NCBI GenBank assembly: GCA_965197585.1
Contig: OZ240215.1
Span: forward strand, 2,688,001-2,752,000
Direction: 5' to 3'
From: Dehalococcoidia bacterium
Lineage (GTDB): Bacteria > Chloroflexota > Dehalococcoidia > Plut-88900
DNA: 64,000 bases
Numbering within the stretch: position 1 is the stretch's first letter; every line of letters starts with the position of its first letter. Of this stretch, positions 784 to 27,976 are shown piece by piece. The notes beneath the pieces were generated by a model. That model was not told the origin of the DNA. It did no database searches and was given only the letters and a program-made list of their open reading frames with translations. The translations under genes and the position numbers were made by a program.

Positions 784-810
784 GGCACGCACAAAGAAAT
801 AGACCACAAA

Positions 811-4331: not shown

Positions 4332-4359
4332 AGATTCCTCGCGGGGCCTCGGAATGACA
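4332..4359. repeat. REP-like palindromic repeat, family A (agattcctcgcggggcctcggaatgaca)
   Basis: Near-identical copies at 22746-22773 and 29987-30012. Confidence 0.8.
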
Positions 4360-12109: not shown

Positions 12110-15006
<2,897 letters not shown>

Positions 15007-15114
15007 GGAATGCAGTCACCTAAACTAAGGGGGTCCGGGAGGCCAACGACAATTTTAGCATCGGGGTGGGGGGAGGGGAAAGGGTGGGGGGGTGCTCGGT
15101 TGACTAGAGGCACG

Positions 15115-15860
15115 CTGGGGTTTTATTCAGTTGTGGGGTTTGGGTTTTTGTTCTGTCTGTGTTGGGGGGCGATGGGAGACGCCTGTTGAGCCTGTCGGCC
15201 TCTACGCTCGTGCGGTGTTCCGGCTGTCGGGGGCCTGGAGGTCCGCCGAGGACGGATTGCAGCCAGCCGCGCCCTAGCGCTCGATGGAGGGCTCCGACTG
15301 CCAGGGCAGACAGTCAGGCCTTGACCCCGCCTCTGAATGCCCGCAGGCATGGTGGGGGCCAGTGATCGGGCTGTAGCCCCCTCAGATATCGTATTTGCGT
15401 GGGCCACCCGAGGGTCCAAGCGGCCCAACAGCCCCTTGCTTGATATGGCGTAAGCTCGCAGGCGGGCCAACTTCCGAGAGGGAGTCTCGGCCGGGGATAG
15501 CCGGTCCGCCACCCCTAGCTCGATAAAGCGTAAGCTCGCTGCTAACCGACCTTCGAGACGGGGTCTCGGCGGGGGATGGCCGGTCCACTATGACGCCGTC
15601 CAGGCATCTTCCATCGCCTGACTACCAGGGAAGGGGGCACGGGACCCGATGGGAAAAGGAGATGGCGCCGGTCACTTGTGCCGCGGGCCTGCGCGAAGGC
15701 CGTTGGGATGGGCTTGGACGTTGAGTCCTCGGGGGGTCGGGTGGGCTTCCCTGGGTTTTTGGTTCCTCCTTTAGGTTTAGGGTGAGTTACTAGCTAGTCG
15801 GGGATGAATATAGTACATATGTACAAGTATGGTCAAGGGGTTCGTGTCACTTTTTGGGGG
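15115..15860 (-). ncRNA. Putative large structured non-coding element, copy 1
   Basis: Homologous to 26978-27705 in promoter, SD, ~160 nt core, closing stem and tail; indels between copies break reading frames; no credible ORF. Confidence 0.6.
15807..15836 (-). promoter_or_regulatory. Promoter TTGACC-N18-TATATT with LexA-like box GTAC-ATAT-GTAC (15813-15824)
   Basis: Same spacing and box position as in copy 2; resembles the GAAC-N4-GTTC box bound by Dehalococcoides and Gram-positive LexA. Confidence 0.6.
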
Positions 15861-15888
15861 GCACCCCACCCATTCCGTTCTTGAGACC

Positions 15889-15998
15889 CCCTTCGACTCT
15901 GCTCAGGGCGAACGGAATTCACCACCCGTGGGGAGGGGTCCGGCTCGGTGAGGGTGCGTCTTCAGGAGGGATGGGTTCCTGCCTCCGCAGGAATGACG
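15889..15998. repeat. Cluster of REP-like half-palindromes
   Basis: cccttcgactctgctcagggcgaacgg and atgggttcctgcctccgcaggaatgacg; relatives at 22861-22890 and 27897-27926. Confidence 0.65.
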
Positions 15999-16016
15999 GT
16001 GGGGAGGGGGGTGGGG

Positions 16017-16415
16017 CTACCCTCCCATCTGGGCAATGCGCCGGGCCATCCAGGTGATGTAGGCGGTGCGGGTCATTTTGCGGCGTCGGGCTTCGCTGTC
16101 GATGAAGGCGGCGACGCCATCGTCAAGAGTGAGATTGGCACGGACTTTCCTCCCGGAGATGCGTATAAGGGGCACAGAAACGAGTTGGCAACCCAAGGGC
16201 ACATCAATGGATTCGAAGGGGCTCGGTGGAGCTACTTCCCTACCTCTTTTCTCCATCTCTTCCACCCAGTCCCGCATTGCATCTTCGGCATTTACAATTG
16301 CATCTTCGACCGTGTAGCCCATGGCTGCGCAACCAGGAAGGTCCGGGAAGGCAACTCCGTAGGCGCCTACTTCCCCGTCCATTAGAGCGGGATATCTTAT
16401 GGGATTGGCTTCCAT
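16017..16415 (-). CDS. hicB: HicB family antitoxin
   Basis: YGVAFPDLPGC.A.G.TVEDAI.NA.DA, plus a C-terminal RHH-like RANLTLD. Confidence 0.9.
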   Translation of the reverse strand: MEANPIRYPALMDGEVGAYGVAFPDLPGCAAMGYTVEDAIVNAEDAMRDWVEEMEKRGREVAPPSPFESIDVPLGCQLVSVPLIRISGRKVRANLTLDDGVAAFIDSEARRRKMTRTAYITWMARRIAQMGG

Positions 16416-16429
16416 ATCCAATGTTCCTC

Positions 16430-16618
16430 TCAGTTCCAACCAGCGCTCCTTGCGATAGTACGTGCAACGATTGGCGACACGTTGTTGTGGCGCGGCACCG
16501 AAATCAGGGGCAGATAATCGGGATGCTCATAGATGTCATGATTAGAGCCGTGCCGGACAAAATACCAACCTTCCCGCTGCAGTCTCCGTATAATCCGACG
16601 CCTGTTTAGTTCCATCAA
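16430..16618 (-). CDS. hicA: HicA family toxin
   Basis: II.RL..EGW...R.GSNH.IY.HP....ISVPRH; 62 aa, upstream of hicB. Confidence 0.9.
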   Translation of the reverse strand: MMELNRRRIIRRLQREGWYFVRHGSNHDIYEHPDYLPLISVPRHNNVSPIVARTIARSAGWN

Positions 16619-16928
16619 GTGCCAATTTTAGCACTTTTTATAAGTGCGGGAAAAGCGTGGCATTGGTTCTGGACGGTAGGTAAGGTCAACAGCAGAATAA
16701 AGAAGGAGCACGCTTGGGCGTCATTGATTGTTTCTGATTGTATTCGTGCCTGTATGATTGAACTTCGCAAGAATTTTCGTGGGGGGCGGGGTGGGGAGGT
16801 TGAGGAGGAGCGGGAAAAGAGGTGCATGGGAATGGGATATTATAGGTGAGGGGTTCGGGGGTGGGTCAATGGGCCGGTGTCACACAGGACAGGGCGTTGC
16901 AGGTTAGACGAAAGACAAGGGGAGAAGC

Positions 16929-18080
16929 ATGAAAAACGGCGTGAAGGTATTCGATGCGGACATGCACATCATGGAGGACCTGAAATTCGTGGAGTATATG
17001 GACCCGGAGTACCGGGACCGAGGCCCAAAAGCCGCCCCGCCCGACGAGAGCTTCCCGGACTTCAGGGCGTCTATGCTGGATGGGAAACCGTTGTCGGGGC
17101 CAGCGCGCATCTATCCCACGCCCGAGATGAGACCGGGGGCAGCGTTGTCCAGACGCTCCTTTACCGAAGGAATGGCTAAATATGTCGAGGGCCGGGCCGA
17201 CGGGTTCGGGCCAAAGTCCCAGCTCGCGGCACTGGAGACTGAAGGGATAGACGTGGCTGCAATGTACCCATCGTCCACGATCCTCAGTTTCCCCACGCCA
17301 AAGACCGACGGGCTCGATCCCAAGCTGTCGGCGGCGATATGCCGGGGATACAACGACTGGCTGACGGACTTCTGCTCGATAGACAGCTCTCGGATGAAGG
17401 GTGTCGCGGCTACGCCGATTCATGACGTTGAGGAGTCGGTGATCGAGATCACTCGGGCGGTGAAAGAGAACTCGATGATTGCGGCTTACATCCGGCCCAA
17501 CGTAATAAACGGCCGCAACCTACACGACGCTTACTACGATCCTCTCTATTCGACCTTGGAAGAGCTGAACGTTCCTCTAGTGGTACACGAGGGAACGGCG
17601 GGCGGGCCGCCGGGCGCCGACCAGCGGTTCCTGGGCAACTGGGTGATGATGCACATGGCCGCACACCCGTTGGAGCAGATGCTGGGCAGCGAGAGCATCG
17701 TGGTCGGGGGAGTGCTGGAGAGGCACCCGAAGCTGAGGGTGGCGTTCCTGGAGTGCGGCTGCAGCTGGCTCGTCTACTGGCTGTGGCGCCTAGACGAGGA
17801 GCTTGAAGCATGGGGTTGGCACGAGGTGCCGTGGCTGAAGAAGAAGCCGAGCGAGTATTTCATGGAGCAATGCTACGTGTCGATGGAGGGAGATGAGCCG
17901 GGGGCCAAGTACTACGTGGAGATGCACGGTAACGACCGGCTGCTATGGGCATCGGACTACCCGCACCCGGACGCAGGATTCCCGAATGCTACGGAGGAGT
18001 TTCTGGGGCTGGACTCGATATCGGAGGAGACGAAGAGGAAGGTGCTGTGGGACAACCCGATGGAGTTTTATGGGTTTTAG
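16929..18080 (+). CDS. Amidohydrolase family protein (Amidohydro_2)
   Basis: DADMH, YNDWLTDFC, HPKLRVAFLE.G, WASDYPHPD. Confidence 0.9.
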   Translation: MKNGVKVFDADMHIMEDLKFVEYMDPEYRDRGPKAAPPDESFPDFRASMLDGKPLSGPARIYPTPEMRPGAALSRRSFTEGMAKYVEGRADGFGPKSQLAALETEGIDVAAMYPSSTILSFPTPKTDGLDPKLSAAICRGYNDWLTDFCSIDSSRMKGVAATPIHDVEESVIEITRAVKENSMIAAYIRPNVINGRNLHDAYYDPLYSTLEELNVPLVVHEGTAGGPPGADQRFLGNWVMMHMAAHPLEQMLGSESIVVGGVLERHPKLRVAFLECGCSWLVYWLWRLDEELEAWGWHEVPWLKKKPSEYFMEQCYVSMEGDEPGAKYYVEMHGNDRLLWASDYPHPDAGFPNATEEFLGLDSISEETKRKVLWDNPMEFYGF

Positions 18081-18109
18081 GGGGGGATCTGCAAAGCAGA
18101 TTGGACAGG

Positions 18110-19726
18110 CTACTCAAACAAGACTTTAACGTCTGACCCGTCCCGGTCCATCGTGAAGAGCTGTCCCAGGTTGCCGAAGTCACCTTCGGCGTAAGGGTGT
18201 TCACCTCTCTCTTCTGCTTCTGTTTCTGTGAGGGAGTGGGGGATGTATAGAGCAATCCTGCTGCCGTCTGGCGACCAGGCGACCTCGCCGCTCATGTTGG
18301 AGAGGCGACTGACCCCGCTGCCATCGGCTTTTGCAACCCACACGCCGTGCGAGCTATAGAGTATGTCGGTGCCGTCGGGAGACCAGGCAAGTTTCTTCGC
18401 GGCGCGGAACGTTACATGGTTCGGTAGCCTTTCAAGTCCCGTGCCATCGAATCTCACAGTGTAAATGCCGGAGCCCCTACCTTCCTTGCCCACAAAGGCA
18501 ATCCGGTTCCCGTCGGGAGACCAAGAAGGAGTGGCAAGCGGGACCCAGTCTTGCACCAATATTTCGCCTAAACGGTCCGACCCCGAAATATGGGTCAAGC
18601 CAGATCCGTCAGCCATAACCGTATATAGGGCTGGCACTCCCACCATGCAATCATTCTCTCCACTATCCTCGTTCACGATGAACGCCAACCGGCGACCGTT
18701 AGGCGACCACTGTGGCGCCGACAGTGCGACATTCATATGGATAGGCGTCAGTAACTGGATGTCCGAGCCGTCGGCATTCATTGCGTAGAGATGTCTATCT
18801 CCGCGACATCCCCCTAACTCCTTCTTTTCAGAGATAAACGCAATGCGAGTTCCATCGGGAGACCACGTGGGGAAGTGATCTATCCATTCGTTGTCGGTTA
18901 GGCGTTGCAGATCGCCGCCATCTATTCGCACAGTCGCAATTTCATAATGAGACTTGCGATCGTCGTAGTAGGGGATTTTGATAAGTTCGAATGAATACAT
19001 GGAAAAAGAACGGCGCTCAGCGGCAAACTGGCACGTCGAATATACAATTCGACAACCCTTTGAGGATACATCCCCATGCAGGCCGAAGGGCAGTGCAGGG
19101 TAGCCATATGGCCTATATCCGGGATTGGCATCAGCCACTATTTGCGGTTCGGAGCCTGTGCTGTCCACAGACCAAACAGCTCCGTCATAGCCGAATACAA
19201 TCCTGGAGCCGTCATCGGTCCACTCTACGAAATCCTTTGAGAAACTGGTCAAGTAATGGGTACCATGAGGTATGTCCCCTGCATAGCCTGTATATCCATC
19301 TGGATTAGGCCTGCATGAAGAAAAAGGTGGATTGCCACTAGCGCCCCTGTTTCGTCGCAATGGAGACGGAGTGGGAATTTCAATCACGGTAGAGGATATC
19401 GTCGTGTTGGCCGCAATTGGGGTTGGCAATTGATCCGGATCCACAGTCAATTCGCATGGAGTAGGAGTCATGGGCTCAACTGGAACAGCCGTCGGACTAA
19501 ACGGGGTGGGAGTAGAGACAACAACCGGGGATACTGATGCGGGGGGAGATGAGGCAAGTGCGGGTATGGTTGGGGTTGAAGTCGCCACTATGGCTGATGC
19601 AGAAACGCTTGGAATAGGAGATTCAGACACCGAAGGGGTCGTCGATGCCGCATCCGTACAGGCGATAAGCATTGCGATCATCAACACCGAAAGCAACGAT
19701 AAAGAGCCCTTCCGAATTAAGCGCAT
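18110..19726 (-). CDS. Lipoprotein with Pro/Thr/Ser-rich linker and TolB-like PD40 beta-propeller
   Basis: Lipobox LIAC; repeated P.WSPDG..IAF motifs. Confidence 0.85.
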   Translation of the reverse strand: MRLIRKGSLSLLSVLMIAMLIACTDAASTTPSVSESPIPSVSASAIVATSTPTIPALASSPPASVSPVVVSTPTPFSPTAVPVEPMTPTPCELTVDPDQLPTPIAANTTISSTVIEIPTPSPLRRNRGASGNPPFSSCRPNPDGYTGYAGDIPHGTHYLTSFSKDFVEWTDDGSRIVFGYDGAVWSVDSTGSEPQIVADANPGYRPYGYPALPFGLHGDVSSKGCRIVYSTCQFAAERRSFSMYSFELIKIPYYDDRKSHYEIATVRIDGGDLQRLTDNEWIDHFPTWSPDGTRIAFISEKKELGGCRGDRHLYAMNADGSDIQLLTPIHMNVALSAPQWSPNGRRLAFIVNEDSGENDCMVGVPALYTVMADGSGLTHISGSDRLGEILVQDWVPLATPSWSPDGNRIAFVGKEGRGSGIYTVRFDGTGLERLPNHVTFRAAKKLAWSPDGTDILYSSHGVWVAKADGSGVSRLSNMSGEVAWSPDGSRIALYIPHSLTETEAEERGEHPYAEGDFGNLGQLFTMDRDGSDVKVLFE

Positions 19727-19746
19727 ATGTTTACTGCTGACTCGAA

Positions 19747-20007
19747 TCAAATTTGGGAGTCGGTTTGAGGGACGATTTCGACGCCGGGGTTGTCTTCCAG
19801 GGCCTGCACCATCTGTGCGGCGAATAGCCTACGGAACTCTCCCATGCTTGCCATAGCGTCAAGGGCCTCGGTTAGCACCATTTGAGTTGTCACTACGTCA
19901 GATGCGCCCCGGGAATCGGCAATCGATAGAGCCTGTTTGTGTAATGAATCCCAGGGATTCGACAATGCGATCCAATAACCCGAATCAGCAAAAGAGATGG
20001 CTATCAG
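19747..20007 (-). pseudogene. Truncated PIN-domain (VapC) toxin
   Basis: FADSGYWIAL.NP.DSLH..A and TTQMVLTEAL are present; it ends at VEIVPQTDSQI*, lacking the C-terminal catalytic Asp motifs; no clean start. Confidence 0.7.
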
Positions 20008-20255
20008 TCGTCTTCCTTCGGATGGCCGTAGAGATAGTGTCTCTTGTTCTTTGCCAAGTCGGTGGGAAGGTCGTCCCATGCCTCAGATGGAATGTCTTTC
20101 TGGAGGTCTTTGACTCTTTCGACGATGGCAGTCAAGCCTCTGGCGGGCGGCAGGTCCTCTATTGAGACTACGACCTCCTTGCCCTCCTCCAAGTCGAGCG
20201 GCTCCAATGGCGTGAGGACCCCTTTGGAATACCTGGCCTTCACATTCGCAATCAT
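20004..20255 (-). CDS. AF2212/DUF104-like antitoxin
   Basis: KARYSKGVLTPLEPLDLEEGKEV; C-terminal LPTDLA.N..HYLYG; directly upstream of the PIN gene. Confidence 0.8.
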   Translation of the reverse strand: MIANVKARYSKGVLTPLEPLDLEEGKEVVVSIEDLPPARGLTAIVERVKDLQKDIPSEAWDDLPTDLAKNKRHYLYGHPKEDD

Positions 20256-20431
20256 GGCCGCACCTTTCCAGCTATAGCGCACATTGTTTTGCGCTTCCGC
20301 AATGATAACCCGAATATAACATCAAACTGCACTGAAGATAGCCCGCGCTGCATCTATAGCAGGGTACAGAAAAACGCTTTTTGAGTTTTCCCGCAGCCTC
20401 TCCCTGGCCAGGAAGGGGGGAGAAAGTTATA

Positions 20432-20485
20432 TCTGAGGGACACCCTCAGACTCCCGTCGAGGGGCTCTGCCTATCTGCACACCCC
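20432..20485. repeat. Intergenic palindromic repeat
   Basis: tctgagggacaccctcaga hairpin followed by ctcccgtcgaggggctctgcctatctgcacacccc. Confidence 0.5.
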
Positions 20486-20573
20486 ATATTTCAGCAGCCT
20501 GCTAGTTTCGTCGGGAGCAATTGCCATGCTTCAATGGCCTGAGATAACAGACCAGGCATGAAGGGCATATGGG

Positions 20574-21881
20574 TCAAGACTGGATTTTAAGAAGGGCCTC
20601 CAGCCGTTTTCGGGCGCGGGTGGGGCCTACTACGGTTAGGCTGAGCTTTTCGGTGCGGAGGAGGGTATCAGTGACGCGTCGGACGTCTTCGATGGTGACG
20701 GCGTCGACGCGGCGGACTACTTCGTCGATCATGAGGACCTGGCCGGTGACCATCTCCTGGGCGCCAAACCAGCCTGCCACGCTGCGGGTGTCCTCGGTGC
20801 GGAGGAGCAGGCGGCCTTTGACCAGCTCTTTGGACTTTTCGAGCTCAGACTCGGTGATGCCCTCTTTGAGCTTCTGAAGCTCGTTCATTATGCCTGCGAG
20901 AGTCTCGTTGGTGCGGGAAGGGTCGACGCCCGCGGCCACGCAGAGGGTGCCGCAGTCCAAGTAGTGGTTGTTGTAGCTGTAGACGTTGTAGGCCAACCCC
21001 CGGTTCTCCCTTAACTCCACGAAGAGCCGGCTGCTCATGCCATCTCCGAGGACGACGTTCAGAAGGTCGAGCGCGTAGCGGTCCGGGTGGTTTACGGCCA
21101 GGCCCCTGACGGCGAGGTTAAGGTGGACCTGCTCTATCTTCCGGTACTCGACGTGCATTCTCGGGGAGTCTTGATCGTCGGGGGCGGGGGTGAAGGTGCG
21201 GGGCTCGGAGGGCTGCCAGCCGTTCAGGCGTGAGGCAAGGGCCTCGACGACCTCGTCATGGTCCACGGCCCCTGCGACGGAGACCACAGTGTTGTTCGGC
21301 GAGTAGTGGGCGTTGAAATAGTCCAGGAGCTGTTCACGGGTGATGGAGTTAATCGAGTCTCGGGTGCCGCCGATGTCTCTTCCCAAGGGGTGATCAGGCC
21401 AGACAATCTGGTCGAGCAGGACTTCTCCCCACTGGTTGGGAGCGTCCTTGACCATGTTCAGCTCTTCGAGGATGACGCGCCGTTCTTTCTCGATGTCTTC
21501 GGAGTCGAAGCGGGAGTTGCGGAGCATGTCGACGAGGAGGTCGAGGGCCTCGGGAAAGTGGGGAAGGGCAACCTTGGCCCAGTAGGTGGTTACCTCCTGG
21601 TCGGTGCTGCCGTTGAGAGAGCCGCCTACACCCTCGACGGGCTCGGATATCTGCTGAGGGAGGCGCCGCTTCTCGGTCCCCTTAAAGCAAAGGTGTTCGA
21701 TGAAGTGGGAGATGCCAGCTTCGTTGTCGGCTTCGTATCGGGACCCGGTGCCCACGAGGATGATCATGCTCGCCGAGCGGGTGTGGGGCATGTTGCAGGT
21801 TATGACCCTCAGACCCGAGTCCAGGGTGGTCTTTTGGTAGGTCTGGTCGGCGACGGAGGTCGCGTCAGACGGCACGGCCAC
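20574..21881 (-). CDS. M16 (pitrilysin-family) zinc peptidase
   Basis: GISHFIEHLCFKGT (HxxEH); MSSRLF.ELRE.RGLAY. Confidence 0.93.
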   Translation of the reverse strand: MAVPSDATSVADQTYQKTTLDSGLRVITCNMPHTRSASMIILVGTGSRYEADNEAGISHFIEHLCFKGTEKRRLPQQISEPVEGVGGSLNGSTDQEVTTYWAKVALPHFPEALDLLVDMLRNSRFDSEDIEKERRVILEELNMVKDAPNQWGEVLLDQIVWPDHPLGRDIGGTRDSINSITREQLLDYFNAHYSPNNTVVSVAGAVDHDEVVEALASRLNGWQPSEPRTFTPAPDDQDSPRMHVEYRKIEQVHLNLAVRGLAVNHPDRYALDLLNVVLGDGMSSRLFVELRENRGLAYNVYSYNNHYLDCGTLCVAAGVDPSRTNETLAGIMNELQKLKEGITESELEKSKELVKGRLLLRTEDTRSVAGWFGAQEMVTGQVLMIDEVVRRVDAVTIEDVRRVTDTLLRTEKLSLTVVGPTRARKRLEALLKIQS

Positions 21882-21919
21882 AGACCTGCGATGGGGGGTG
21901 GTGCGGGGTGAGTTCAGGG

Positions 21920-22558
21920 TTAAGAATCCCAGGAGACGTGGCCGTGGATGTCGTCGGGGTGGGAGCGTGACTTAAAGCCGGCGTGGAGACGCTTGGTCTC
22001 GCCGAGGACGCCTTCGTCGCCGTGGCCCGGGTAGATGTTGATGTCGTCGTCCAGGACAATGAGCTTGGTGTCGACGTTGTGGAGGAGTTGCTGAAAGTTC
22101 TCGGGGGTGGTGGTGTAGCCGGGGCCGCCGGGGAAGAGGGTGTCGCCGCTGAAGAGGTGCTTGCCCCAGAGGAGGGAGGTGGCGCCGGGGGTGTGACCGG
22201 GATTGTGGATGGTCCTGAGGGTGATGTTGCCGAAGGAGAAGCTGCCGCCGTCTTCGAAGTGCTGGTCAGCCTTGATGGGAAGCTCGCTTTCGTCGTCGGG
22301 GTGGACGACGAGGGGGATGCCGAGGGCGTCTTTGAGAGCTTTTGTGCCGTCGATATGGTCGAAGTGGGTGTGGGTGAAAAGGACGGCCTGGACATTGGTG
22401 TCCTTGGCCTGATCCAGGACACGCTCGGGCTGAGCGGGGGCGTCGATGATTACGCTCTCGTTGGTCTTGGGGCAGACGACTAGGTAGGCGTTGTTTTCGA
22501 AGTCGCCGGTGACTATCTTCCTGATCTCAATATTTTCGTCTTTGTGCAGTACGGCCAT
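21920..22558 (-). CDS. MBL-fold metallo-hydrolase (glyoxalase II-like)
   Basis: THTHFDHI, PGHTPG, SGDTLF, YPGHG. Confidence 0.92.
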   Translation of the reverse strand: MAVLHKDENIEIRKIVTGDFENNAYLVVCPKTNESVIIDAPAQPERVLDQAKDTNVQAVLFTHTHFDHIDGTKALKDALGIPLVVHPDDESELPIKADQHFEDGGSFSFGNITLRTIHNPGHTPGATSLLWGKHLFSGDTLFPGGPGYTTTPENFQQLLHNVDTKLIVLDDDINIYPGHGDEGVLGETKRLHAGFKSRSHPDDIHGHVSWDS

Positions 22559-22745
22559 GATGTCCTCCAGAGACTGTGTGGGCGGTGGTCAAGGGGTGGT
22601 GTTTGTGGGAGAAAGCTTAGCAAATGGGGGGTGGGGTTGCAATGAGGTGGAGGGGGCGGGCGGCCCCTATTGGGACGGTGATAGGGGATCCAAGAGAAGA
22701 CTAGGGCTACTCGATGAGAAAAGAGGACTTGGGGGCAGACGCCTT

Positions 22746-22890
22746 AGATCCCTCGCGGGGCCTCGGGATGACACAGAACAAGGCGCAAGAAAGGTCAGGA
22801 ACGACGGAGAGGTGGCGTTAAGCGAACTTGACGTATTGGCAGTGCGTGGTCGCCCCCCGCTCGATCCTTCGAGTGCCTCAGGATGAGCGG
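22746..22890. repeat. REP-like repeat cluster (family A copy plus gatccttcgagtgcctcaggatgagcgg)
   Basis: Matches 4332-4359, 29987-30012 and, more weakly, 15889-15915. Confidence 0.7.
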
Positions 22891-22960
22891 CCCCTCACCG
22901 GGGAGGGCGGCCACGAGAGCCGCCCATACGGAAGGGAAGGTCGGGAAGGACGGATGAGTA

Positions 22961-23929
22961 CTAGAGAAGGGGGGCGACTTTGTTGGCCATGAGACCCATC
23001 TGGCGCATGAGGGTGTCGTGGGGTTCCACGCCGTGGCGGACGAAGTCGAATACGAAGTGGTCGAGGCCCGCATCCAGGTAGTTGGATATGCGCTCGGCGC
23101 TCTGTTCCGGGGAGCCAGCGACGGTTACGGCCCCAATGTCTACGGCGTATTCCAGGTCCATCAGGCCGGAGAAATAGTCCTCAATTTCGGCGGTGGACAT
23201 TTCCCTGCCCTCGGTGACTGTGGAGTAAATCCACGCGCTGACCTTGGCCTTCTCTCCCCACTTGCCCGGCGGGGCGTTGTTGAGGCCGGGGAGATACACA
23301 TCGTTAAGCTCGTCGAAGGTGGGCCAGGGGGGATTGATGTACTCGCAGTAGCGTGCGGCGCGTGGAATAGACACGGAGCGGCCACCCCACCAGATGGGTG
23401 GATAGGGCTTCTGGACGGGTTTCGGCTCCATGGAAACGCCGTTCAGCTTGTAGAACTGGCCATCGTAGGTGACTTCGTCCTCGGTCCAGAGGCGGGTAAT
23501 AATTTCAAGCTGCTCGTCGGCGATGGCGCCACGTTTCCGCCGGTCGGCGCCCACGGCGTGGAAGGCTTCATCAACCATGCCAAGGCACATCCCGACTATG
23601 ACCCTGCCATTGGATATGACGTCCAGACTGGCGAAATACTTGGCCCAGTCGAAGGGAGGGAGATAGGGGAGGGGAATGGAGTCGACGGCAATCCGGATTT
23701 TGGATGTGGCGGCGATGATGGCAGGAAGGAGGACACGGGCGTCGAGGATGCTCTTGTTGCCGAAGCGGCCGAAGGGGCCGGCGTCGGGGATGGCGTTCAT
23801 CAGTGGAACGTTGACGGAGTAGAAGCCGAGCTTTTCGGCGTACTGGGCGGCCTCCACAACCTCGGTCATGGTCGGGGGTTTGCGGCCCCACGGGAAGACC
23901 GCGACGCTGAAGTGGTCCATGATGGGCAT
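22961..23929 (-). CDS. LLM-class flavin/F420-dependent oxidoreductase
   Basis: AEKLGF.S, ASLDVISNGR, LWTE..V.YDG.FY, PKPVQKP.PPIW.GG. Confidence 0.9.
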   Translation of the reverse strand: MPIMDHFSVAVFPWGRKPPTMTEVVEAAQYAEKLGFYSVNVPLMNAIPDAGPFGRFGNKSILDARVLLPAIIAATSKIRIAVDSIPLPYLPPFDWAKYFASLDVISNGRVIVGMCLGMVDEAFHAVGADRRKRGAIADEQLEIITRLWTEDEVTYDGQFYKLNGVSMEPKPVQKPYPPIWWGGRSVSIPRAARYCEYINPPWPTFDELNDVYLPGLNNAPPGKWGEKAKVSAWIYSTVTEGREMSTAEIEDYFSGLMDLEYAVDIGAVTVAGSPEQSAERISNYLDAGLDHFVFDFVRHGVEPHDTLMRQMGLMANKVAPLL

Positions 23930-24089
23930 GTGGTCTGGCCTCCAAGCTTGTTTGTTTGGGTGAGTATATCAGGGGGAGGATGAAGTGGGACGCGTGGGTG
24001 GCATGAAGAAGTTCAGGGATGCTGTGATATTAAGTGTTATGATCTGGCGACCGAATTTTGGATCATTCATGTATTTCGAAAGGTGAAAA

Positions 24090-24428
24090 ATGGGAAAATA
24101 CGTAGCGCTCTATTACTCATCGCCTGAGGTTATGGAGTCGATGAAGAATGCTGCACCGGAGGATATGCAAGAAGGCATTAAGTCCTGGATGGCCTGGGGT
24201 CAAAAGTGCGGGGACGGCATCGTGGACTTCGGGGCGCCTCTCGGGGGCGGGATGAAAGTTGGGAAGTCGGGAAGCTCTCCGAGCGGCAGCGATGTGATGA
24301 TGTACTCGATTTTGCAGGCGGAGAGTATGGAAGGGGCGCTGGCCCTGATGCAGGACCATCCGCACTTGAGTTGGCCGGGCGACGGCGAGATCGAAGTTTA
24401 CGAGTGCATGAATCTCCCGCCGATGTAA
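24090..24428 (+). CDS. YCII-related protein
   Basis: W.AW.......VD.GAPL, YSILQAES...A.....HPH, IEVYE. Confidence 0.75.
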   Translation: MGKYVALYYSSPEVMESMKNAAPEDMQEGIKSWMAWGQKCGDGIVDFGAPLGGGMKVGKSGSSPSGSDVMMYSILQAESMEGALALMQDHPHLSWPGDGEIEVYECMNLPPM

Positions 24429-24433
24429 GCACC

Positions 24434-26869
24434 CTAAGCGACTATATTCACCAGCCGACCCGGTACGTAGACGACTTTCCGAGGCCCGTTCTTCATGAAG
24501 GCCCTTATCCGGTCGCTGGATAGGGCTACTTCCTTCGCCTCTTCCTCGGTGATGCCCGCCGAGACTGTTACCCGGTCTCTGACCTTGCCGTTGACCTGCA
24601 CAACGAGGGTGACTTCTTCCTCTGCGGCGAGGGCATCGTCCCATTGGGGGAAGGGTTGATTGTGAATGCTGTATTCGTAGCCTTTAGCGGCCCACAACTC
24701 CTCGGCGAGGTGGGGGGCGGTTGGGGCGAGCATTAGCAGCAACGCCCTTATCGACTCTCTCCAAGTCTCCGCGTCCACCGACCCTTCATCCAGGGCTCGG
24801 GCGAGGTGGTTGGTGAACTCCATCAGCGAAGCTAACGCAGTATTGAAATGGAACCGGTCCAGGTCCTGGTGCACCTTCTTGATGGTCTTGTGCAGCATGT
24901 GAATCGTCTGTTTAGACGACTTGCCGGGCCCCAATTCGGGGTCGTCCCGCTCCGTCAGGTCCCAGACCCGGTTGTACCAGCGCACTATCCCGTTTATCCC
25001 CTGGTCGACCCACTCTCCACCCTGGTCCCACGGCCCGATGAACATCAGGTATCCGCGAACGACGTCGGCGCCTACGGTGTCGACGTACTCGTCGGGGGTG
25101 ATGACGTTGCCACGGGACTTGCTCATCTTCTGCCTGTCGCTGATGATGATGCCCTGGTTGTAGAGCCTGACGAAGGGCTCGTCGAAGTCGAGCAGGCCGA
25201 TGTCTCGCAGGGCTTTGACGAAGAAGCGGGCGTAGAGCAGGTGCATCACCGCGTGCTCGGCGCCGCCGGTGTACTGGTCGACGGGCAGCCAGTGCTTGAT
25301 CTCCTCCGGTTTGAAAGCCGAGTCCCCGGAGTTGGGGGAAGCGTACTTTAAGAAGTACCAGGAGGAGCACATGAAGGTGTCCATGGTGTCGGTCTCCCGG
25401 CGAGCCGGGCCCCCACACTCGGGGCAGGTAGTATTCACAAACTCTTTGTGGAACGTGAGGGGTGATTCGCCGGTGGGTCTGAACTCGGCGTCTTCCGGTA
25501 GCAGCACCGGAAGTTGGTCCTCGGGGATGGGGACTATGCCGCAGGCGTTGCAATAGACCATAGGTATCGGGGCTCCCCAATACCGTTGGCGGGATATGAG
25601 CCAATCACGGATACGGTAAGAGACTGTGCCGCCACCGATGCCCTGCTCCTCCAAGGCTCGTGTAACAGCCTGCTTCCCATCTTCATTCCCAAGGCCCACG
25701 AACTGTCCTGAGTTGACCATCTCCCCGGGCCCCGTGTAAGCCTCCACAAAGTCCTCGCCGCCCCATCCAGGCGGAGCGATTACCGTCCTGATGGGAAGGT
25801 CATATTTCTTGGCGTATGCAAAGTCCCGGGTGTCGTGGGCGGGGACGCCCATGACGGCACCGGTGCCGTAGGTGAGAAGTGCGTAGTCGGCGATGAAGAT
25901 GGGGACCTTCTCGCCGTTCAGGCGGTTGGTGCAGTAGGCACCGATGAATACTCCCGTCTTCTCCTTGTCCGTAGCAAGCCGCTCTATCTCGGAGCGCCGC
26001 CTCGTCTCCTCGACGTAGGCTTGTACCTCTTCCTTCTTGTCAGGAGTAGTGAGCTGGGAAACCAGCGGATGCTCTGGGGCGAGAACCATGAAGGTCACGC
26101 CGAACACGGTGTCGGGACGGGTGGTGAAGACTCTTATCTCGGTTTGCTCAAGGCCGTACTCCTCGATGCTGAATGCAATCTCAGCTCCCTGGCTCTTGCC
26201 GATCCAGTTGGACTGCATCGTGTTTATGCGGTCGGGCCACTGGATGCTGCTGAAGTCGAGGAGTTCATCGGCGTACCTGGTGATCCTGAAGAACCACTGC
26301 TCCAAGTCTCTCCTGGTCACCGAGGAGGTACAACGTTCGCACGTACCGTCGGGGAGGACTTGCTCGTTGGCAAGGGTAGTCTGGCAGGTCGGGCACCAGT
26401 TGGCGGGGGCCTTGTTTCGGTACGCGAGCCCTGCATGGAACAGCTTGAGGAAAAGCCACTGAGTCCATTTATAGTAATCGGGCAGGGAGGTCACGACCTC
26501 ACGGTCCCAGTCGTACACAGCGCCAATGCGCTTGAGCTGCCGGCGCATGTTCTCGACGTTGCGCATGGTCCACAAGTGGGGATGGATGCCGTTCTTGATG
26601 GCGGCGTTCTCGGCGGGGAGTCCGAACGCGTCGAAACCCATGGGGTGGAGGACGTTGTAGCCCTGCATGCGCTTGAAACGGGCGTGGACGTCCGCGGGGG
26701 CCATAGCGTACCAGTGGCCGATGTGCAGGTTCCCGGAGGTGTACGGGAACATGGTGAGCTCATACCACTTGGGCTTGCCGGGGTCTTGATCCACGCGGTA
26801 CAGCCGGTCCTTGTTCCACCTTTGCTGCCACTTGGTCTCTATTGCTGACGGGTCGTATCTCAGGGGCAT
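24434..26869 (-). CDS. leuS: Leucine--tRNA ligase
   Basis: MFPYTSGNLHIGH, FTTRPDT editing domain, GGAEHAVMHLLY, KMSKS. Confidence 0.99.
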   Translation of the reverse strand: MPLRYDPSAIETKWQQRWNKDRLYRVDQDPGKPKWYELTMFPYTSGNLHIGHWYAMAPADVHARFKRMQGYNVLHPMGFDAFGLPAENAAIKNGIHPHLWTMRNVENMRRQLKRIGAVYDWDREVVTSLPDYYKWTQWLFLKLFHAGLAYRNKAPANWCPTCQTTLANEQVLPDGTCERCTSSVTRRDLEQWFFRITRYADELLDFSSIQWPDRINTMQSNWIGKSQGAEIAFSIEEYGLEQTEIRVFTTRPDTVFGVTFMVLAPEHPLVSQLTTPDKKEEVQAYVEETRRRSEIERLATDKEKTGVFIGAYCTNRLNGEKVPIFIADYALLTYGTGAVMGVPAHDTRDFAYAKKYDLPIRTVIAPPGWGGEDFVEAYTGPGEMVNSGQFVGLGNEDGKQAVTRALEEQGIGGGTVSYRIRDWLISRQRYWGAPIPMVYCNACGIVPIPEDQLPVLLPEDAEFRPTGESPLTFHKEFVNTTCPECGGPARRETDTMDTFMCSSWYFLKYASPNSGDSAFKPEEIKHWLPVDQYTGGAEHAVMHLLYARFFVKALRDIGLLDFDEPFVRLYNQGIIISDRQKMSKSRGNVITPDEYVDTVGADVVRGYLMFIGPWDQGGEWVDQGINGIVRWYNRVWDLTERDDPELGPGKSSKQTIHMLHKTIKKVHQDLDRFHFNTALASLMEFTNHLARALDEGSVDAETWRESIRALLLMLAPTAPHLAEELWAAKGYEYSIHNQPFPQWDDALAAEEEVTLVVQVNGKVRDRVTVSAGITEEEAKEVALSSDRIRAFMKNGPRKVVYVPGRLVNIVA

Positions 26870-26977
26870 TTAACTGTCCGTTCTCCTAAGTCCTAACTCT
26901 CCCGACAATCGCAAAAGCTACCACGGGGTGGGTGGGTGTGCAAGGATGGGCACTCGTTCGGGCGGGTTGGTGATGCG

Positions 26978-27705
26978 CCGGGTTTTCTTCAGTCCTCCTG
27001 AGGCGGATCCTTCAGAGGCGGATGTTCCATCTTCGATTGTGGGGTTTCGGTTTGGTTTGTTTGGGAGGGGGCAGGCGATGGAAGGTCCGGGACTAGAAAC
27101 CAGGCCGGAGGTTGTTGCCGAGCCGTCGGCGCCGGGCTGGATTATCCCCACATGTTGTCGGCTGTGGTCAGGGTTGTGTGGGGCCGATCCCACCGGCAGC
27201 GGCACTTGACCGGACCGCTGACGGGGAAGATGCCGCCTGAGGCGGTCTTTCAGAACCGGCGTCCCGGTGCATCCGCCGGGTAGACGGATGGCAGGGACGG
27301 CGGGACAAACAAGGACACGAGGGCCTTGCTAAACCGGGGGTCGGTTGACTTACCCGGGAAACCGGCACGCAATGGGCCGGGGTAAACGCACCCGGTAATG
27401 GGGGCGTTGAATCGGCAGGGGCCCTGGACGGGGCCTGCCGCGTATAGTCTGTGGACATTCCATCGCCTGGAAATTGGGGGAAGGGGCACGGGACCCGGGG
27501 GAAGAGGAGATGGCGACTTTTGCTTGAGCCGCGGGTCCTTGGTAGGGCCGTTGGGATGGGCTGAGGCGTTGAGTCCTCGGGTGGGTCTAGTGGGCTTCCC
27601 TGGGTTGTGGTTCCTCCTTGAGATAGTTGGATTGGTGTTCGAACGGTGGGGAGCATAGCACAAGTGTTCAGGTAGGGTCAAGGGGTTCGTGTCACTTTTG
27701 GGGGG
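26978..27705 (-). ncRNA. Putative large structured non-coding element, copy 2
   Basis: See copy 1. Closing stem 27072-27088/27453-27469 (16 of 17 bp). Confidence 0.6.
27652..27681 (-). promoter_or_regulatory. Promoter TTGACC-N18-TATGCT with LexA-like box GAAC-ACTT-GTGC (27658-27669)
   Basis: Positionally identical to the copy 1 promoter; shares the upstream aaaagtgacacgaaccccttgacc. Confidence 0.6.
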
Positions 27706-27726
27706 ACACCGCCCCAGCCCCACAGG

Positions 27727-27926
27727 GGAACCCTCACCCCCTTGATCCCCCTCTCACGCCACGGGCGCACGCCCAGGCGCATCTACGACATCTTCGACCC
27801 TTAGGGCGGTCAAGGGAGAGGGGGAAATAAGAATAGAGGTCCACGTGCGTGCCCTGCACGCACGTGGACCTCTAATTCAGTACTTGGGGAGGGGGATGGA
27901 TTCCCGATCAGGGTGGGGAATGACGG
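27727..27926. repeat. REP-like palindrome cluster
   Basis: tccccctctc...gagaggggga arms, ggtccacgtgcgtg/cacgcacgtggacc hairpin, atggattcccgatcagggtggggaatgacg. Confidence 0.6.
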
Positions 27927-27976
27927 GGGGTGGGGGAAGGTTGACCGGTGTCGGGGGTGGGGATAGGGTGGGGGGG

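Follow-up and report, generated by a model that had tools for sequence, protein, structure and literature searches.

Two homologous units precede uvrA and leuS

The window, a 64,000-nt stretch of a Dehalococcoidia bacterium genome (G000), carries two homologous units, one upstream of uvrA (element A) and one upstream of leuS (element B). As an earlier note on this DNA had described, both copies are real and on the minus strand, and pairwise alignment shows their parts in the same order (Table 1). Their interiors do not align, also as described, and belong to different sequence classes; that of element A contains a 79-nt unit, repeated twice at 15432-15586. The hairpin-bearing flank of element B recurs upstream of other copies (G001_L143 matches). 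The native leuS promoter, which had been proposed to lie downstream of the unit, is present at an unchanged position in G001, a species of the same genus whose leuS site has no unit.

Table 1. Features of the two units and their surroundings, in window positions
Feature	Position	Strand	Remarks
Element A, whole inserted unit, upstream of uvrA	15091..15855	-	bounds by analogy with the empty site of element B
A, promoter block	15807..15855	-	AAAAAGTGACACGAACCCC; block conserved in 57 strong copies
A, -35 TTGACC	15836-15831	-	18-nt spacer to -10
A, -10 TATATT	15812-15807	-	consensus scan; promoter 10/12 matches
A, SD-like AAGGAGG	15765..15771	-	without start codon
A, rod-like core	15628..15751	-	GGGAAG/CTTCCC, CAC/GTG, GACCC/GGGTC, GAGGA/TCCTY and apical hairpin; end-to-end R1 match at G000:C1:2703611-2703771, minus strand
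A, long-range stem, 5' strand	15601..15618	-	GGCGATGGAAGATGCCTG
A, interior	15186..15600	-	class of 6 copies
A, long-range stem, 3' strand	15168..15185	-	..CAGGCGTCTCCCATCGCC
A, tail	15091..15167	-	A/C-rich stretch, CACAACTGAATAAAA, then degenerate 3' block (ccccagcgtgcctctagtcaaccgagcacc)
uvrA start codon	15006		downstream of element A
Hairpin (19 bp), then T-run	27834..27874	-	just upstream of element B; separate repeat often preceding units
Element B, whole inserted unit, upstream of leuS	26949..27699	-	bounds from element-free orthologous site in G001
B, promoter block	27652..27699	-	18-nt spacer
B, -35 TTGACC	27681-27676	-	consensus scan
B, TG-extended -10 TATGCT	27657-27652	-	consensus scan; promoter 9/12 matches
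B, SD-like AAGGAGG	27613..27619	-	without start codon
B, rod-like core	27478..27600	-	R1 match G000:C1:2715460-2715619, minus strand
B, long-range stem, 5' strand	27453..27469	-	GGCGATGGAATGTCC
B, stretch aligned to terminase operon	27397..27484	-	operon locus nt 1515-1605; large-terminase codons about 225-255
B, long-range stem, 3' strand	27072..27088	-	GGACCTTCCATCGCC
B, tail	26949..27071	-	A/C-rich, small GGAGGA hairpins, CTGAAGAAAA, 3' block ending ..CGAACGAGTGCC
Native leuS promoter TTGCAC-17-TAGCTT	26915..26943	-	outside element B, 5 nt downstream of its end
leuS start codon	26869		downstream of element B

The units belong to a genus-specific family

The earlier count of two copies was a gross undercount. 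An nhmmer search of the 3.43-Mb genome with the 5' block (promoter, AAGGAGG and the core of ~160 nt) gave 80 matches, namely 57 strong copies (S type), 14 diverged copies (W type), one partial copy and eight matches to the promoter only. The S units are ~0.65-0.8 kb long. The two window copies and most other S units retain the promoter block, the SD-like motif, a rod-forming core of about 125-160 nt, the long-range stem around a class-variable interior and an A/C-rich tail. The paralogues are old, with a best identity of 90% at the median and 96% at most, and their interiors sort into several sequence classes. The covariance model R1 matched 58 sites in G000 and 23-68 sites per genome in eight other species of the genus, while three genomes from three other genera of the same family gave none; on a sample of the class (141 genomes, 105 genera), matches were confined to the six genomes of this genus. 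An exact-pattern scan of 185,579 species returned at least 89 stretches, and among the 80 matches listed every record was titled 'MAG: Dehalococcoidia bacterium'. Neither window copy matched an Rfam family, at the gathering score or at E up to 10, in line with the earlier failure to place them in a known one. Both window stretches are members of a family specific to one genus of uncultured Dehalococcoidia.

Promoter, orphan Shine-Dalgarno motif and expression

The promoter region conforms to the earlier description. The two copies share the identical block AAAAGTGACACGAACCCCTTGACC, and the -10 box follows the -35 box after 18 nt in each (TTGACC-18-TATATT, 15836-15807; TTGACC-18-TATGCT, 27681-27652). 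The consensus scan found three promoter-like sites in element A, compared to 0.4 expected from shuffles, and one in element B, compared to 0.3. No ATG, GTG or TTG occurs in the 20 nt after AAGGAGG in either copy. This motif is complementary to the 3' end of the host 16S rRNA (GGAUCACCUCCUU), and alignment A3, whose 107 cores were selected by a regular expression on the motif itself, shows no variation at the motif columns A1-G7. The STAB-SD stabiliser is a published precedent for an RNA 5' end shielded by the 30S subunit at an orphan SD (PMC4113751). No intrinsic terminator on the sense strand was found in or after either window copy, and genes for RNase J and Rho are present in the genome. 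Sponge metatranscriptome contigs (two runs, one study) lie on both interiors at a depth of 2-6, a weak hint of transcription, as the depth on the elements is not above that of the flanking genes and DNA can occur in such libraries.

Pairing potential is conserved across copies

The cores of A and B align with three 1-nt indels, and the predicted long-range stem was found in both copies, where GGCGATGG (15618-15611; 27467-27460) pairs with CCATCGCC (15175-15168; 27081-27074). Minimum-energy folds of both predicted transcripts recovered the rod and the long-range stem unaided; the fold of element A has a z of -2.33 (1 of 20 shuffles as good) and that of element B a z of -5.29 (0 of 20). In the rod model 92.5% of cells pair, compared to 38-54% when the partners are slid. 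Nine rod pairs (28 cells) changed on both sides, compared to a shuffle mean of 5.4, and 4 of 500 shuffles reached nine, a test in which kinship alone, without structure, can outdo the shuffles. Further pair types in the rod were not significant (matched by 53 of 500 shuffles), and covariation is modest, with most stem columns hardly varying. An alternative outer helix that sequesters the SD motif is an equally good fit, with pairing in 95.6% of all cells and in 99.4% of those in the SD helix. In 56 of the 57 copies the rod-like core is retained together with a closing long-range stem of at least 12 bp (12-18 bp), which has 19 distinct inner strands; the compensatory changes are specific to the class. 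The G-U pairs in the stems favour an RNA of the promoter-sense strand. These results show that pairing potential is conserved across copies.

Descent from a phage-type packaging operon

The exchangeable part had been taken for a swappable hairpin payload. Instead, the interiors of the class of element B and of most other classes derive from a large-terminase gene. The clearest case is element 2178910, whose interior matches the terminase-like gene without gaps over 221 and 250 nt at 72-76% identity (E 7e-31 and 2e-49). Element B aligns to the terminase operon at 66% identity over 92 nt (E 1.9e-5). Matches to terL or W-type interiors were found for 4 of the 7 copies in its class and for 24 of the 57 interiors overall (reversed controls, 0). 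With the terminase protein as query, tblastn matched 11 of the 14 W copies. The identity of the terminase rests on its similarity to a terminase-like protein of a Bacillus phage (33.8% identical across 90% of its length, E 5e-55), on a phrog_5909 match and on an SPP1-type portal gene two genes downstream. In addition, the promoter block is common to the units, both terminase operons and the capsid operon. The interior of element A has no detectable similarity to the terminase gene, and no trace of terminase ancestry was found in its class and one other. The shared tail reported earlier is present in both copies, and its end, by eye, is the stop-codon region of the terminase gene. Judged by their sequence, the units arose from a phage-type packaging operon (small ORFs and a large terminase) by decay and internal deletion, and most classes still carry a recognisable fragment of the nuclease domain of the large terminase. 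We consider the family identity and this descent, taken jointly, to be well supported and very probably correct.

The units look non-coding, since they have no start codon, frame-breaking indels and a codon usage unlike that of genes; indels between the two copies had been cited to this effect before. It is scarcely credible that truncated terminase-nuclease-like proteins are encoded by the W copies and possibly, from an unusual start, by the S copies too, even though all 14 W copies have AAAGGAG-N4-ATG and the N-terminus MSRTSL.RPRR.RAVW.RPA..TRLL without frameshifts, open frames of 220-455 aa follow in 13 of them (a stop after 46 aa in the other), and 11 of 14 can be aligned to the terminase at residues about 186-376. 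Stop codons are scarce on the C-rich strand, so long open frames like these are to be expected by chance. Per-codon scores of the 13 W ORFs that reach 200 aa range from -0.07 to +0.008, all under the 5th percentile of called genes (0.076), while the real terminase genes score 0.18 and 0.25. Moreover, the W products are of low complexity and rich in R, P and S, contain tandem duplications and have unrelated C-termini, and by eye they end before the region with the terminase C-terminal GHDD motif, whereas the S copies lack a start codon and have 1-2-nt indels within the would-be frame.

Position and turnover of the units

The downstream gene is co-oriented in 44 of 57 copies and the upstream gene divergent in 36 of 57, while 13 of 57 face a gene on the opposite strand according to a crude gene caller. 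N-terminal parts of 20 downstream genes were scanned and 19 matched families, which had no common theme (transporters, oxidoreductases, amidohydrolases, an aminoacyl-tRNA synthetase). The leuS-locus unit is carried by eight of the nine species of the genus, and in G001 the clean empty site reads ...CATCCC followed directly by CATCCTTGCAC. Where a clean junction is readable, 5 nt separate the unit from the downstream -35 box of the host gene; among the 25 copies bearing the 3' block, 16 have TTGnnn exactly 5 nt past it. The comparison of orthologous loci suggested in the earlier note revealed one species without a unit at uvrA and one at leuS. Downstream genes keep their native promoters, and the unit is thus dispensable at the two loci tested.

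Interior classes vary from species to species at both loci, and thus a fixed scaffold with an exchangeable interior, as first proposed, holds over evolutionary time. At uvrA, an entire cassette differs between G000 and G005, set in flanks that appear near-identical in the alignment, where identity marks run almost unbroken from the element A tail into uvrA; by BLAST, the upstream flank is 98.5% identical and the 248 nt beside uvrA are 92.3% identical. A paralogue 97% identical to the G005 cassette lies at another site in that genome. These results show that loci exchange cassettes within short spans of evolutionary time. No mechanism of first insertion was found.

Possible functions of the units

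The earlier note had favoured a large non-coding RNA with a fixed scaffold and variable payload. Its non-coding, modular and structured character stands, but a free-form, two-copy RNA gene with arbitrary hairpin payloads does not. Our best reading, with a probability of roughly 55%, is a transcribed, recombining promoter-and-leader repeat. Each unit would fire from its own sigma-70-type promoter, and the 5' end of the RNA may be shielded by the 30S subunit at the orphan SD, as in STAB-SD, and by the rod. Without an intrinsic terminator, the transcript would run through the host promoter into the gene or be halted there by Rho acting on the C-rich tail; with read-through, the unit would be an extra upstream promoter and structured leader for the host gene. 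The copies could spread and homogenise by recombination between the conserved 5' module and the 3' tail. The promoter-and-leader function as such is a tentative proposal that we hold to be possible but doubtful.

It is very improbable that each unit makes an independent, trans-acting RNA of ~0.6 kb, a sponge or decoy that titrates 30S subunits or an RNA-binding protein by its repeated GGAGGA and A/C-rich motifs. The unit has its own promoter and an upstream terminator-like hairpin, conserved pairing potential, SD-like GGAGGA hairpins that recur in both core and tail, and a C-rich, G-poor tail that could serve as an entry site for the Rho present in this genome. However, no finding identifies a partner, no Rfam family matched, the interiors are decaying pseudogene sequence of many classes, and ~70 mostly co-oriented copies linked to -35 boxes are better explained by a role in cis or an insertion bias. 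Dispersed pac-like packaging sites for a domesticated GTA-like head module are also improbable, if less so; here the conserved 5' module, made up of the promoter, the ribosome-binding site and the beginning of the terminase operon's first gene, would be a recognition site of the small terminase, and the ~70 copies would seed directional headful packaging of host DNA. In phage SPP1, pac overlaps promoters, a ribosome-binding site and the 5' part of the small-terminase gene, and the conserved parts of the unit are of the same three kinds (PMC6316719). The genome also has an SPP1-type portal, large terminase, adaptor and major head protein (phrog_212 match, E 9e-75), the last being present as one intact copy in 11 of 12 genomes from the family (identity 73-100%), as would be expected in a domesticated module; the units share the promoter block that heads the terminase and capsid operons and are mostly co-oriented with downstream genes. 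In contrast, the S-type core is without similarity to the 5' region of the present terminase operons beyond the promoter (nhmmer profile positions 2-61 and 2-65 only), orf132 matches no small-terminase family, a protein site on duplex DNA does not account for the RNA-type compensatory changes or the G-U pairs, and the retained terminase fragment and tail are left without explanation. Because the head module is family-wide and the units are genus-specific, packaging does not depend on the units.

Among the options of the earlier note, a non-autonomous mobile unit fits best. In its selfish form, which we judge unlikely though deserving of attention, a miniature derived from the packaging operon, or from an autonomous element since lost, would be inserted 5 nt upstream of -35 boxes by a recombinase acting in trans; transcription and folding would only help the unit itself to spread (for instance as folded single-stranded DNA) or be leftovers. 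This agrees with the high copy number with subfamilies, the fixed distance to the -35 box, the clean G001 site while eight of nine species hold a unit there, the 97% identical pair in G005, the cassette swap between near-identical flanks, the dispensability at two loci and a short motif that occurs inverted, as AGTGACAC at the 5' end and as GTGTCAC within the 3' block. Nevertheless, that motif is only 7-8 bp with a subterminal right copy, the one clean junction shows no target-site duplication, no transposase with shared ends and no Y1 transposase were found, and the nine IS110-type genes are part of a different element, an insertion sequence of 1,159 bp whose targets are REP-like hairpins. 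The G-U pairs, too, speak for an RNA of the promoter-sense strand rather than for a selfish element. Lastly, the promoter hexamers, the SD motif and the core motifs are near-invariant among old paralogues while the interiors have decayed beyond recognition, which suggests selection on each copy or strong conversion.

Anatomy of the repeat unit

The earlier note had described two homologous, co-oriented minus-strand stretches with a fixed scaffold and a variable interior, one upstream of uvrA (element A) and one upstream of leuS (element B), and closer analysis found both as described. Each begins with the identical block AAAAGTGACACGAACCCCTTGACC, an 18-nt spacer and a -10 box, and the promoter scan placed a complete promoter in each (see the table). 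AAGGAGG without a start codon and the ~160-nt core are present in A and in B, GGCGATGG pairs with the far-off CCATCGCC in both copies, the interiors cannot be aligned with each other, and the tails are common to both. The note had been unable to match the elements to a T-box, tmRNA, RNase P, 6S, group I/II intron or CRISPR; Rfam likewise returned nothing on either unit, at the gathering score or at E up to 10, and the five weak matches at E up to 10 over 14800-28100 all lie outside the unit cores, far below gathering. A known Rfam family (T-box, OLE, GOLLD, ROOL, HEARO, group II intron domains, 6S, tmRNA and the rest) was thus rejected, with no qualifying match. The sole Rfam match in the window at gathering score is a separate T-box leader (99.4 bits; gathering 93).

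Iterated nhmmer with the 5' block gave 80 matches in the genome holding the window (G000; a single contig of 3.43 Mb, 59% G+C): 57 strong full-length copies (S; >150 bits), 14 diverged full-length copies (W; 62-107 bits), 1 partial copy and 8 copies of the promoter only. The S leaders are of three subtypes, each with a short palindrome (GTTCGAAC, GACTAGCT or GTCTAGAC), and the 57 S interiors fall into eight multi-member classes (12, 10, 7, 6, 6, 6, 3 and 2 copies) and five singletons; copy A belongs to one of the classes of 6, copy B to the class of 7. The S tail is A/C-rich, at 15131-15167 in copy A and at ~27031-27073 in copy B, with optional small GGAGGA hairpins and CTGAA(T/G)AAAA. A 3' block, GGTGTGTCACTAAYCTAYCGAACGAGTACA, occurs in 25 of the 57 S copies and is followed exactly 5 nt later by TTGnnn in 16 of those 25. 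The build of the 57 S and 14 W copies is a mosaic that variously combines three leader subtypes, 13 classes of interior and optional modules of the tail. A short leader peptide at GGCGATGG was rejected because the ATG-frame products vary in length and frame among copies of common nucleotide sequence. Within the interior of element A, a 79-nt unit stands twice in tandem (78% matches), and each repeat is predicted to fold into hairpins of its own. A small hairpin module, TCCGCCTNNGGAGGA, is found in 0-3 copies in tails and as an optional core insert, and brings extra SD-like GGAGGA motifs.

Coordinates of the features discussed (G000, genome holding the window)
Feature	Location	Strand	Remark
Element A	window 15091-15855	-	upstream of uvrA
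Element B	window 26949-27699	-	upstream of leuS
Promoter of A	window 15836-15807	-	TTGACC-18-TATATT
Promoter of B	window 27681-27652	-	TTGACC-18-TATGCT
79-nt tandem repeat	window 15432-15586		in element A interior
Hairpin module TCCGCCTNNGGAGGA, example	window 26990-27040	-	
T-box leader	window 806-1152	+	
~180-nt upstream repeat	window 27705-27900	-	hairpin with T-run at 27874-27834, 19 bp
REP-like hairpins	window 4334-4358, 27900-27924; variant ~15985-16010	-	
Terminase-like genes	G000 1117829-1119220 (L148) and 2872274-2873566		third in operon orf132, orf73, gene
IS110 copies	G000:C1 1396045-1397203; near 3412979, 2811211, 2899408		
Head/packaging module, part 1	G000:C1 ~2862500-2875000 (L159, L169)		orf134-orf72-large terminase, HTH protein, SPP1-type portal
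Head/packaging module, part 2	G000:C1 ~2862500-2875000		161-aa ORF, major head protein, SU10-type adaptor
Promoter block alone	G000:C1 near 1327404, 2522237, 1869321, 1341689, 2562253		before ordinary genes

Copy number and taxonomic range

A covariance model of the core (R1), built from 107 cores, gave 58 matches in G000 and 23-68 in each of the eight other species of the genus, ~418 in all, and no match in three genomes from the family's three other genera. In a class-wide sample (141 genomes, 105 genera), R1 matches were confined to the six genomes of this genus. The blastn results agree with this range, with S copies in 9 of 41 genomes and W copies in 9 of 41. An exact-pattern scan with one genome per species gave at least 89 stretches, and the 80 listed are all titled 'MAG: Dehalococcoidia bacterium'; element A had no match among 50,697 phage records. 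In literature searches, largely of open journals, neither work on noncoding RNA repeats of Chloroflexi or sponges and on terminase or GTA of Dehalococcoidia, nor work on terminase-derived, non-autonomous, promoter-bearing intergenic repeats of bacteria, describes such a family.

Descent from a terminase operon

When the interiors were searched against G000, two paralogous genes outside the family were matched, which encode a protein of ~430-463 aa and whose operons are both headed by the units' promoter block. The protein shares 33.8% identity, across 90% of its length, with a Bacillus phage 'terminase-like family protein' (E 5e-55), matches phrog_5909 and has >3,600 homologues of ~460 aa, some with Terminase_6C. 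At the second locus an SPP1-type portal gene lies two genes downstream, and solved structures gave no sequence match to the protein. On these similarities, the two genes encode a large terminase (terL).

The interior of the element at 2178910 is 72-76% identical to the terminase gene over 221 and 250 nt, ungapped, and the terminase protein aligns to 6 of the 57 S copies and to 11 of the 14 W copies, in the latter over residues ~186-376. By lenient blastn, 24 of the 57 S interiors match terL or W interiors, and the reversed controls gave 0. These matches are complete in three classes (6/6, 3/3 and 2/2) and include 3/5 singletons, 4/10 members of the class of 10, 4/7 of copy B's class and 2/12 of the class of 12, where the best match shown is 27 nt and probably the REP-like motif; they number 0/6 in copy A's class and 0/6 in one further class of 6. 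Copy B at 27397-27484 aligns to terminase operon nt 1515-1605 (66%, E 1.9e-5), and nothing was found for the copy A interior against the terminase operon locus. In addition, GGCGATGGAAGG matches terminase codons for SNDGRF and CCATCG(T/C)C codons for GSSIV, and by eye the tail end CCGCCTCAGGAGGACTGAATAA resembles the gene's final codons and stop, CGCCTCAGAAAAGGCTATGAATAA.

A rival explanation is that the W copies are protein-coding. They retain AAAGGAG-N4-ATG, which is followed by open frames of 220-455 aa in 13 of 14 and by a stop after 46 aa in 1. Against this reading, the codon usage of the 13 ORFs scored is -0.07 to +0.008 per codon, compared to 0.076 for the 5th percentile of called genes and 0.18 and 0.25 for the real terminase genes, and the W products are low-complexity, with tandem duplications and unrelated ends. 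We read the S and W types as both being non-coding derivatives of the terminase operon, in which the AAGGAGG of S units is a relic of the operon's real ribosome-binding site and the ATG still stands in the W copies. Derivation of the core from the 5' coding end of orf132 has no support from nhmmer, the likeness being seen by eye only. The intact terminase gene at L148 also carries both closing-stem segments, with ACGATGGAAGG ~390 nt upstream of CTTCCATCGT; the closing stem may be older than the repeat family, or may have been copied back into the terminase gene by conversion.

RNA structure

MFE folds of both predicted transcripts recover the rod and the long-range stem unaided, with MFE z of -2.33 for A (1 of 20 shuffles as good) and -5.29 for B (0 of 20). 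The closing stem reaches at least 12 bp in 56 of the 57 S copies (median 15), with the 3' strand 310-510 nt downstream. Its inner half is class-specific yet complementary (GGAAGGTCC/GGACCTTCC, GGGAGGTTCCCGG/CCGGGAACCTCC, AAAGACACTCTGG/CCAG..AGTGTCTT), and there are 19 distinct inner strands among the S copies.

The structure of the core was tested on 107 distinct cores from 9 genomes. The rod model leaves 92.5% of cells paired, compared to 38-54% with slid partners. Two-sided changes in the rod were seen at 9 pairs (28 cells), where the shuffle mean was 5.4 and 9 was reached in 4 of 500 shuffles; 'further pair types' in the rod were not significant (53 of 500 shuffles). With a rival outer helix, AAGGAGG/CCUUC, 95.6% of cells are paired overall and 99.4% within the SD helix. 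Since both models fit, two mutually exclusive outer helices are possible. A compensatory swap between the main core types was seen by eye, with CAC..GACCC/GGGTC..GTG in one and AGCC..GGCC/GGCC..GGCT in the other, and there is a third form, CGAGACCC/GGGTCTCG. Taken together, the pairing potential of the core is clearly conserved, and formal covariation in it is modest.

Genomic position and turnover of the units

By a crude codon-usage gene caller, on which the gene-position counts rest, a co-oriented gene begins ~740-1290 nt from the unit start in 44 of the 57 S copies, ~4 standard deviations above 50%, and a divergent upstream gene is found at 36 of the 57. The genes downstream have varied functions (of 20 N-terminal parts, 19 matched Pfam families, which share no theme), and because of this diversity a riboswitch or regulon leader was ruled out.

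At orthologous loci, 8 of 9 species have the unit upstream of uvrA and 8 of 9 have it upstream of leuS, the uvrA copies of species G004 and G006 and the leuS copies of G004 and G007 being partial matches only. The leuS site of species G001, which is without the unit, reads ...GGGGCATCCC/CATCCTTGCAC (the slash marks the junction) and has its native promoter intact; therefore, the unit's slot lies 5 nt upstream of the -35 box. Homologous integration at a common promoter was rejected for the leuS locus because the empty site of G001 lacks such a promoter block, and the analysis revealed no mechanism by which a unit is first inserted.

Different species carry different interior classes at one and the same locus. 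At uvrA, the whole promoter-core-interior cassette differs between G000 and species G005, and near-unbroken identity runs from the closing stem and tail through uvrA; by BLAST, the upstream flank is 98.5% identical and the 248 nt adjoining uvrA 92.3%. Elsewhere in G005 lies a paralogue 97% identical to its cassette; for the copies in G000, identity to the best paralogue is 90% at the median and 96% at most. The swapped cassettes, class differences and paralogue identities thus point to frequent conversion or replacement of cassettes, with breakpoints in the conserved ends.

Other repeats were seen around the units. A separate ~180-nt repeat, often upstream of units, ends in GGGNGGTGTCCCCCC, contains a long hairpin and T-run, and is present at the G001 leuS site, where the unit is absent. 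A REP-like hairpin family, GTCATTCC-N(6-16)-GGAAT, has 2 exact matches in the window against 0.04 expected and recurs in unit flanks, class-1 interiors and IS110 ends. A ~50-nt motif, CAATCAAACAGGCACGnnTTTTGATnGAnnCAATCA, is recurrent in intergenic DNA, including the region upstream of uvrA in species G003 (L133) and the tails of units 2983125 and 1784941.

Comparison with known mobile elements and repeats

Pneumococcal BOX elements are modular, CREE and BOX measure ~100-300 bp, and CREE are bounded by clear inverted repeats with a TA duplication. Like CREE and BOX, the units are high-copy, non-coding and intergenic, and adjoin genes; their many copies of shuffled modules are those of mosaic repeats of the CREE/BOX/BIME kind. 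CREE and BOX contain or generate promoters, form folded RNA and can change the expression of adjacent genes, and by analogy the units may do likewise; for CREE of Neisseria, PMC2649163 gives promoter generation, IHF binding and RNase III binding. Unlike CREE and BOX, the S units are 0.65-0.8 kb long, show neither convincing terminal repeats nor a convincing target duplication, derive from a phage packaging operon rather than an insertion sequence, and carry a complete inward-facing promoter predicted to transcribe the whole unit.

The units resemble MITEs as non-autonomous, internally deleted derivatives of a longer coding unit, with many copies in subfamilies and presence/absence differences between relatives. 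Unlike in MITEs, the parent encodes a terminase and not a transposase, and the units seem to have spread mainly through replacement or conversion at fixed sites close to promoters. No terminal inverted repeats of at least ~10 bp were found in the units by eye and regex; the sole shared inverted motif is AGTGACAC at the 5' end and GTGTCAC in the 3' block (7-8 bp, subterminal on the right). The filled and empty leuS sites of G000 and G001, the sole clean pair, show no readable duplication beyond 2-3 C residues. Among the IS110-type and Y1 transposases, the families searched, no autonomous element sharing the unit ends was found, the longer relatives being the orf132-orf73-terminase operons.

A link to IS200/IS605 was rejected, with no Y1 transposase in a genome scored 92% complete. 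G000 has nine DEDD transposase genes of the IS110 type, two of them just upstream of units. The IS110-family insertion sequence is 1,159 bp long, with 96-99% identity among the four copies compared, and its left end begins with the GTCATTCC..GGAATC hairpin; its flanks suggest that it inserts into such REP-like hairpins, and two copies are inserted in REP-like hairpins 137 nt upstream of two units. A link to IS110 was rejected, since in the four copies compared the insertion sequence is separate from the units and its ends exclude them; the adjacency is coincidental. The IS110 bridge RNA, ~170 nt long, structured and with internal loops, is driven by a promoter and lies at the end of an element that encodes a DEDD recombinase and inserts at specific sites. 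The units resemble it as predicted promoter-driven structured RNA of a repeat with specific insertion sites, but the DEDD recombinase is not part of the unit.

In the STAB-SD of cry3A in Bacillus thuringiensis, as described in PMC4113751, the untranslated leader carries, close to its 5' end, an SD-like sequence that starts no translation and is thought to hold the 30S subunit, blocking the 5'-3' exonuclease RNase J1. The units likewise have an SD-like leader sequence without a start codon, AAGGAGG, ~30 nt from the start predicted near 15800 in A and near 27645 in B, and complementary to the 16S rRNA 3' end (GGAUCACCUCCUU), and the host encodes RNase J (565 bits, over cut-off). Unlike STAB-SD, the SD of the unit can also pair with a CCUUCC stretch in the core. 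AAGGAGG is invariant in the 107 cores behind R1, which were themselves selected on AAGGAGG.

A phage head module and possible packaging sites

The phage genes of G000 include one portal and a single major head protein of the HK97 type (phrog_212, E 9e-75), whose gene is followed by an adaptor gene; ahead of the capsid operon stands one of the promoter-only copies. In 11 of 12 genomes from the family the head protein is intact and present once (73-100% identity), which suggests that the head module is domesticated, GTA-like and predates the repeat family. Conservation of a phage head gene in single copy across a bacterial family makes the head/packaging module a candidate gene transfer agent for Dehalococcoidia. 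Some host-like genes (cupin, DNA methylase) lie scattered within it.

The units could be dispersed pac-like sites. According to PMC6316719, pac of SPP1 lies across the promoters, the RBS and the 5' portion of the small-terminase coding sequence. The unit module is built of the same kinds of parts, from a terminase operon near an SPP1-type portal: it holds the operon's promoter and RBS relic, and the likeness of the core to the orf132 5' end is suggestive by eye, although orf132 itself matched no small-terminase family. Unlike the SPP1 pac, the unit core is dissimilar to the 5' region of the present operon by nhmmer. Moreover, a phage has one pac per genome, whereas there are ~70 units per chromosome. 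By this analogy, the GTA-like head module would have seeded the chromosome with ~40-70 copies of the promoter, RBS and 5' part of the terminase operon as packaging-initiation or co-regulated sites, which we regard as unlikely; the estimate covers a vertically inherited module of the family, seeding in one genus and oriented sites before host genes. If this were true, the chromosome would by design serve as a substrate that is packaged directionally by the headful and transferred between cells, and a domesticated head module would be linked to targeted gene transfer in uncultured Dehalococcoidia.

Expression and proposed role of the units

Two sponge metatranscriptome runs from one study (X19, X20) yielded contigs on the interior of A (15344-15617, 15554-15632, 15603-15727) and of B (27116-27296, 27179-27345). 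Their depth is 2-6, uvrA and leuS are also covered, and such contigs are no proof of transcription; the X19 and X20 contigs cover 14 of 30 and 10 of 30 bins of the 17-kb stretch, with the unit-gene junctions outside the covered parts. On the sense strand, neither window unit was seen to contain an intrinsic terminator or to be followed by one, and Rho is encoded. Joints from 15.7-15.9 kb to 22.8 or 27.6-27.9 kb in DNA runs X1 and X4 were dismissed as repeat-induced contig joins.

Taken together, these results support well a genus-specific, non-coding, promoter-bearing repeat that comes from a terminase operon, sits beside host promoters and is exchanged between loci. As to its role, we favour transcribed promoter-and-leader elements, in which the orphan SD would act like the STAB-SD (PMC4113751) and the RNA structure would be under some constraint. 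A purely selfish element is a rival, which the MITE-like copy number and replacement-dominated spread would suit; the near-consensus promoter, the orphan ribosome-binding site and the folded core are under apparent constraint. A trans-acting RNA is another rival, which the structured predicted transcripts would allow; antisense action or target mimicry was rejected, as outside the family the interiors match nothing but the terminase genes and REP-like motifs of 30-70 nt.

Insertion sequences are the usual origin assigned to dispersed intergenic repeats; this family, ~1.5% of the genome, is traced instead to a phage- or GTA-type packaging operon. Its units stand at a fixed distance from host promoters, with cassettes swapped between loci, and ~400 natural variants offer a test of which structure is conserved. 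If the units, as promoter-and-leader elements, drive or modulate downstream genes, they would form a genus-wide layer of expression control made of phage parts. The promoter block also stands alone before ordinary genes, among them those for an HD-domain hydrolase and an ABC-transporter ATPase and a third orf132-like gene, and may represent a strong promoter type in common use, marked by a conserved GTGACAC ahead of the -35 box.
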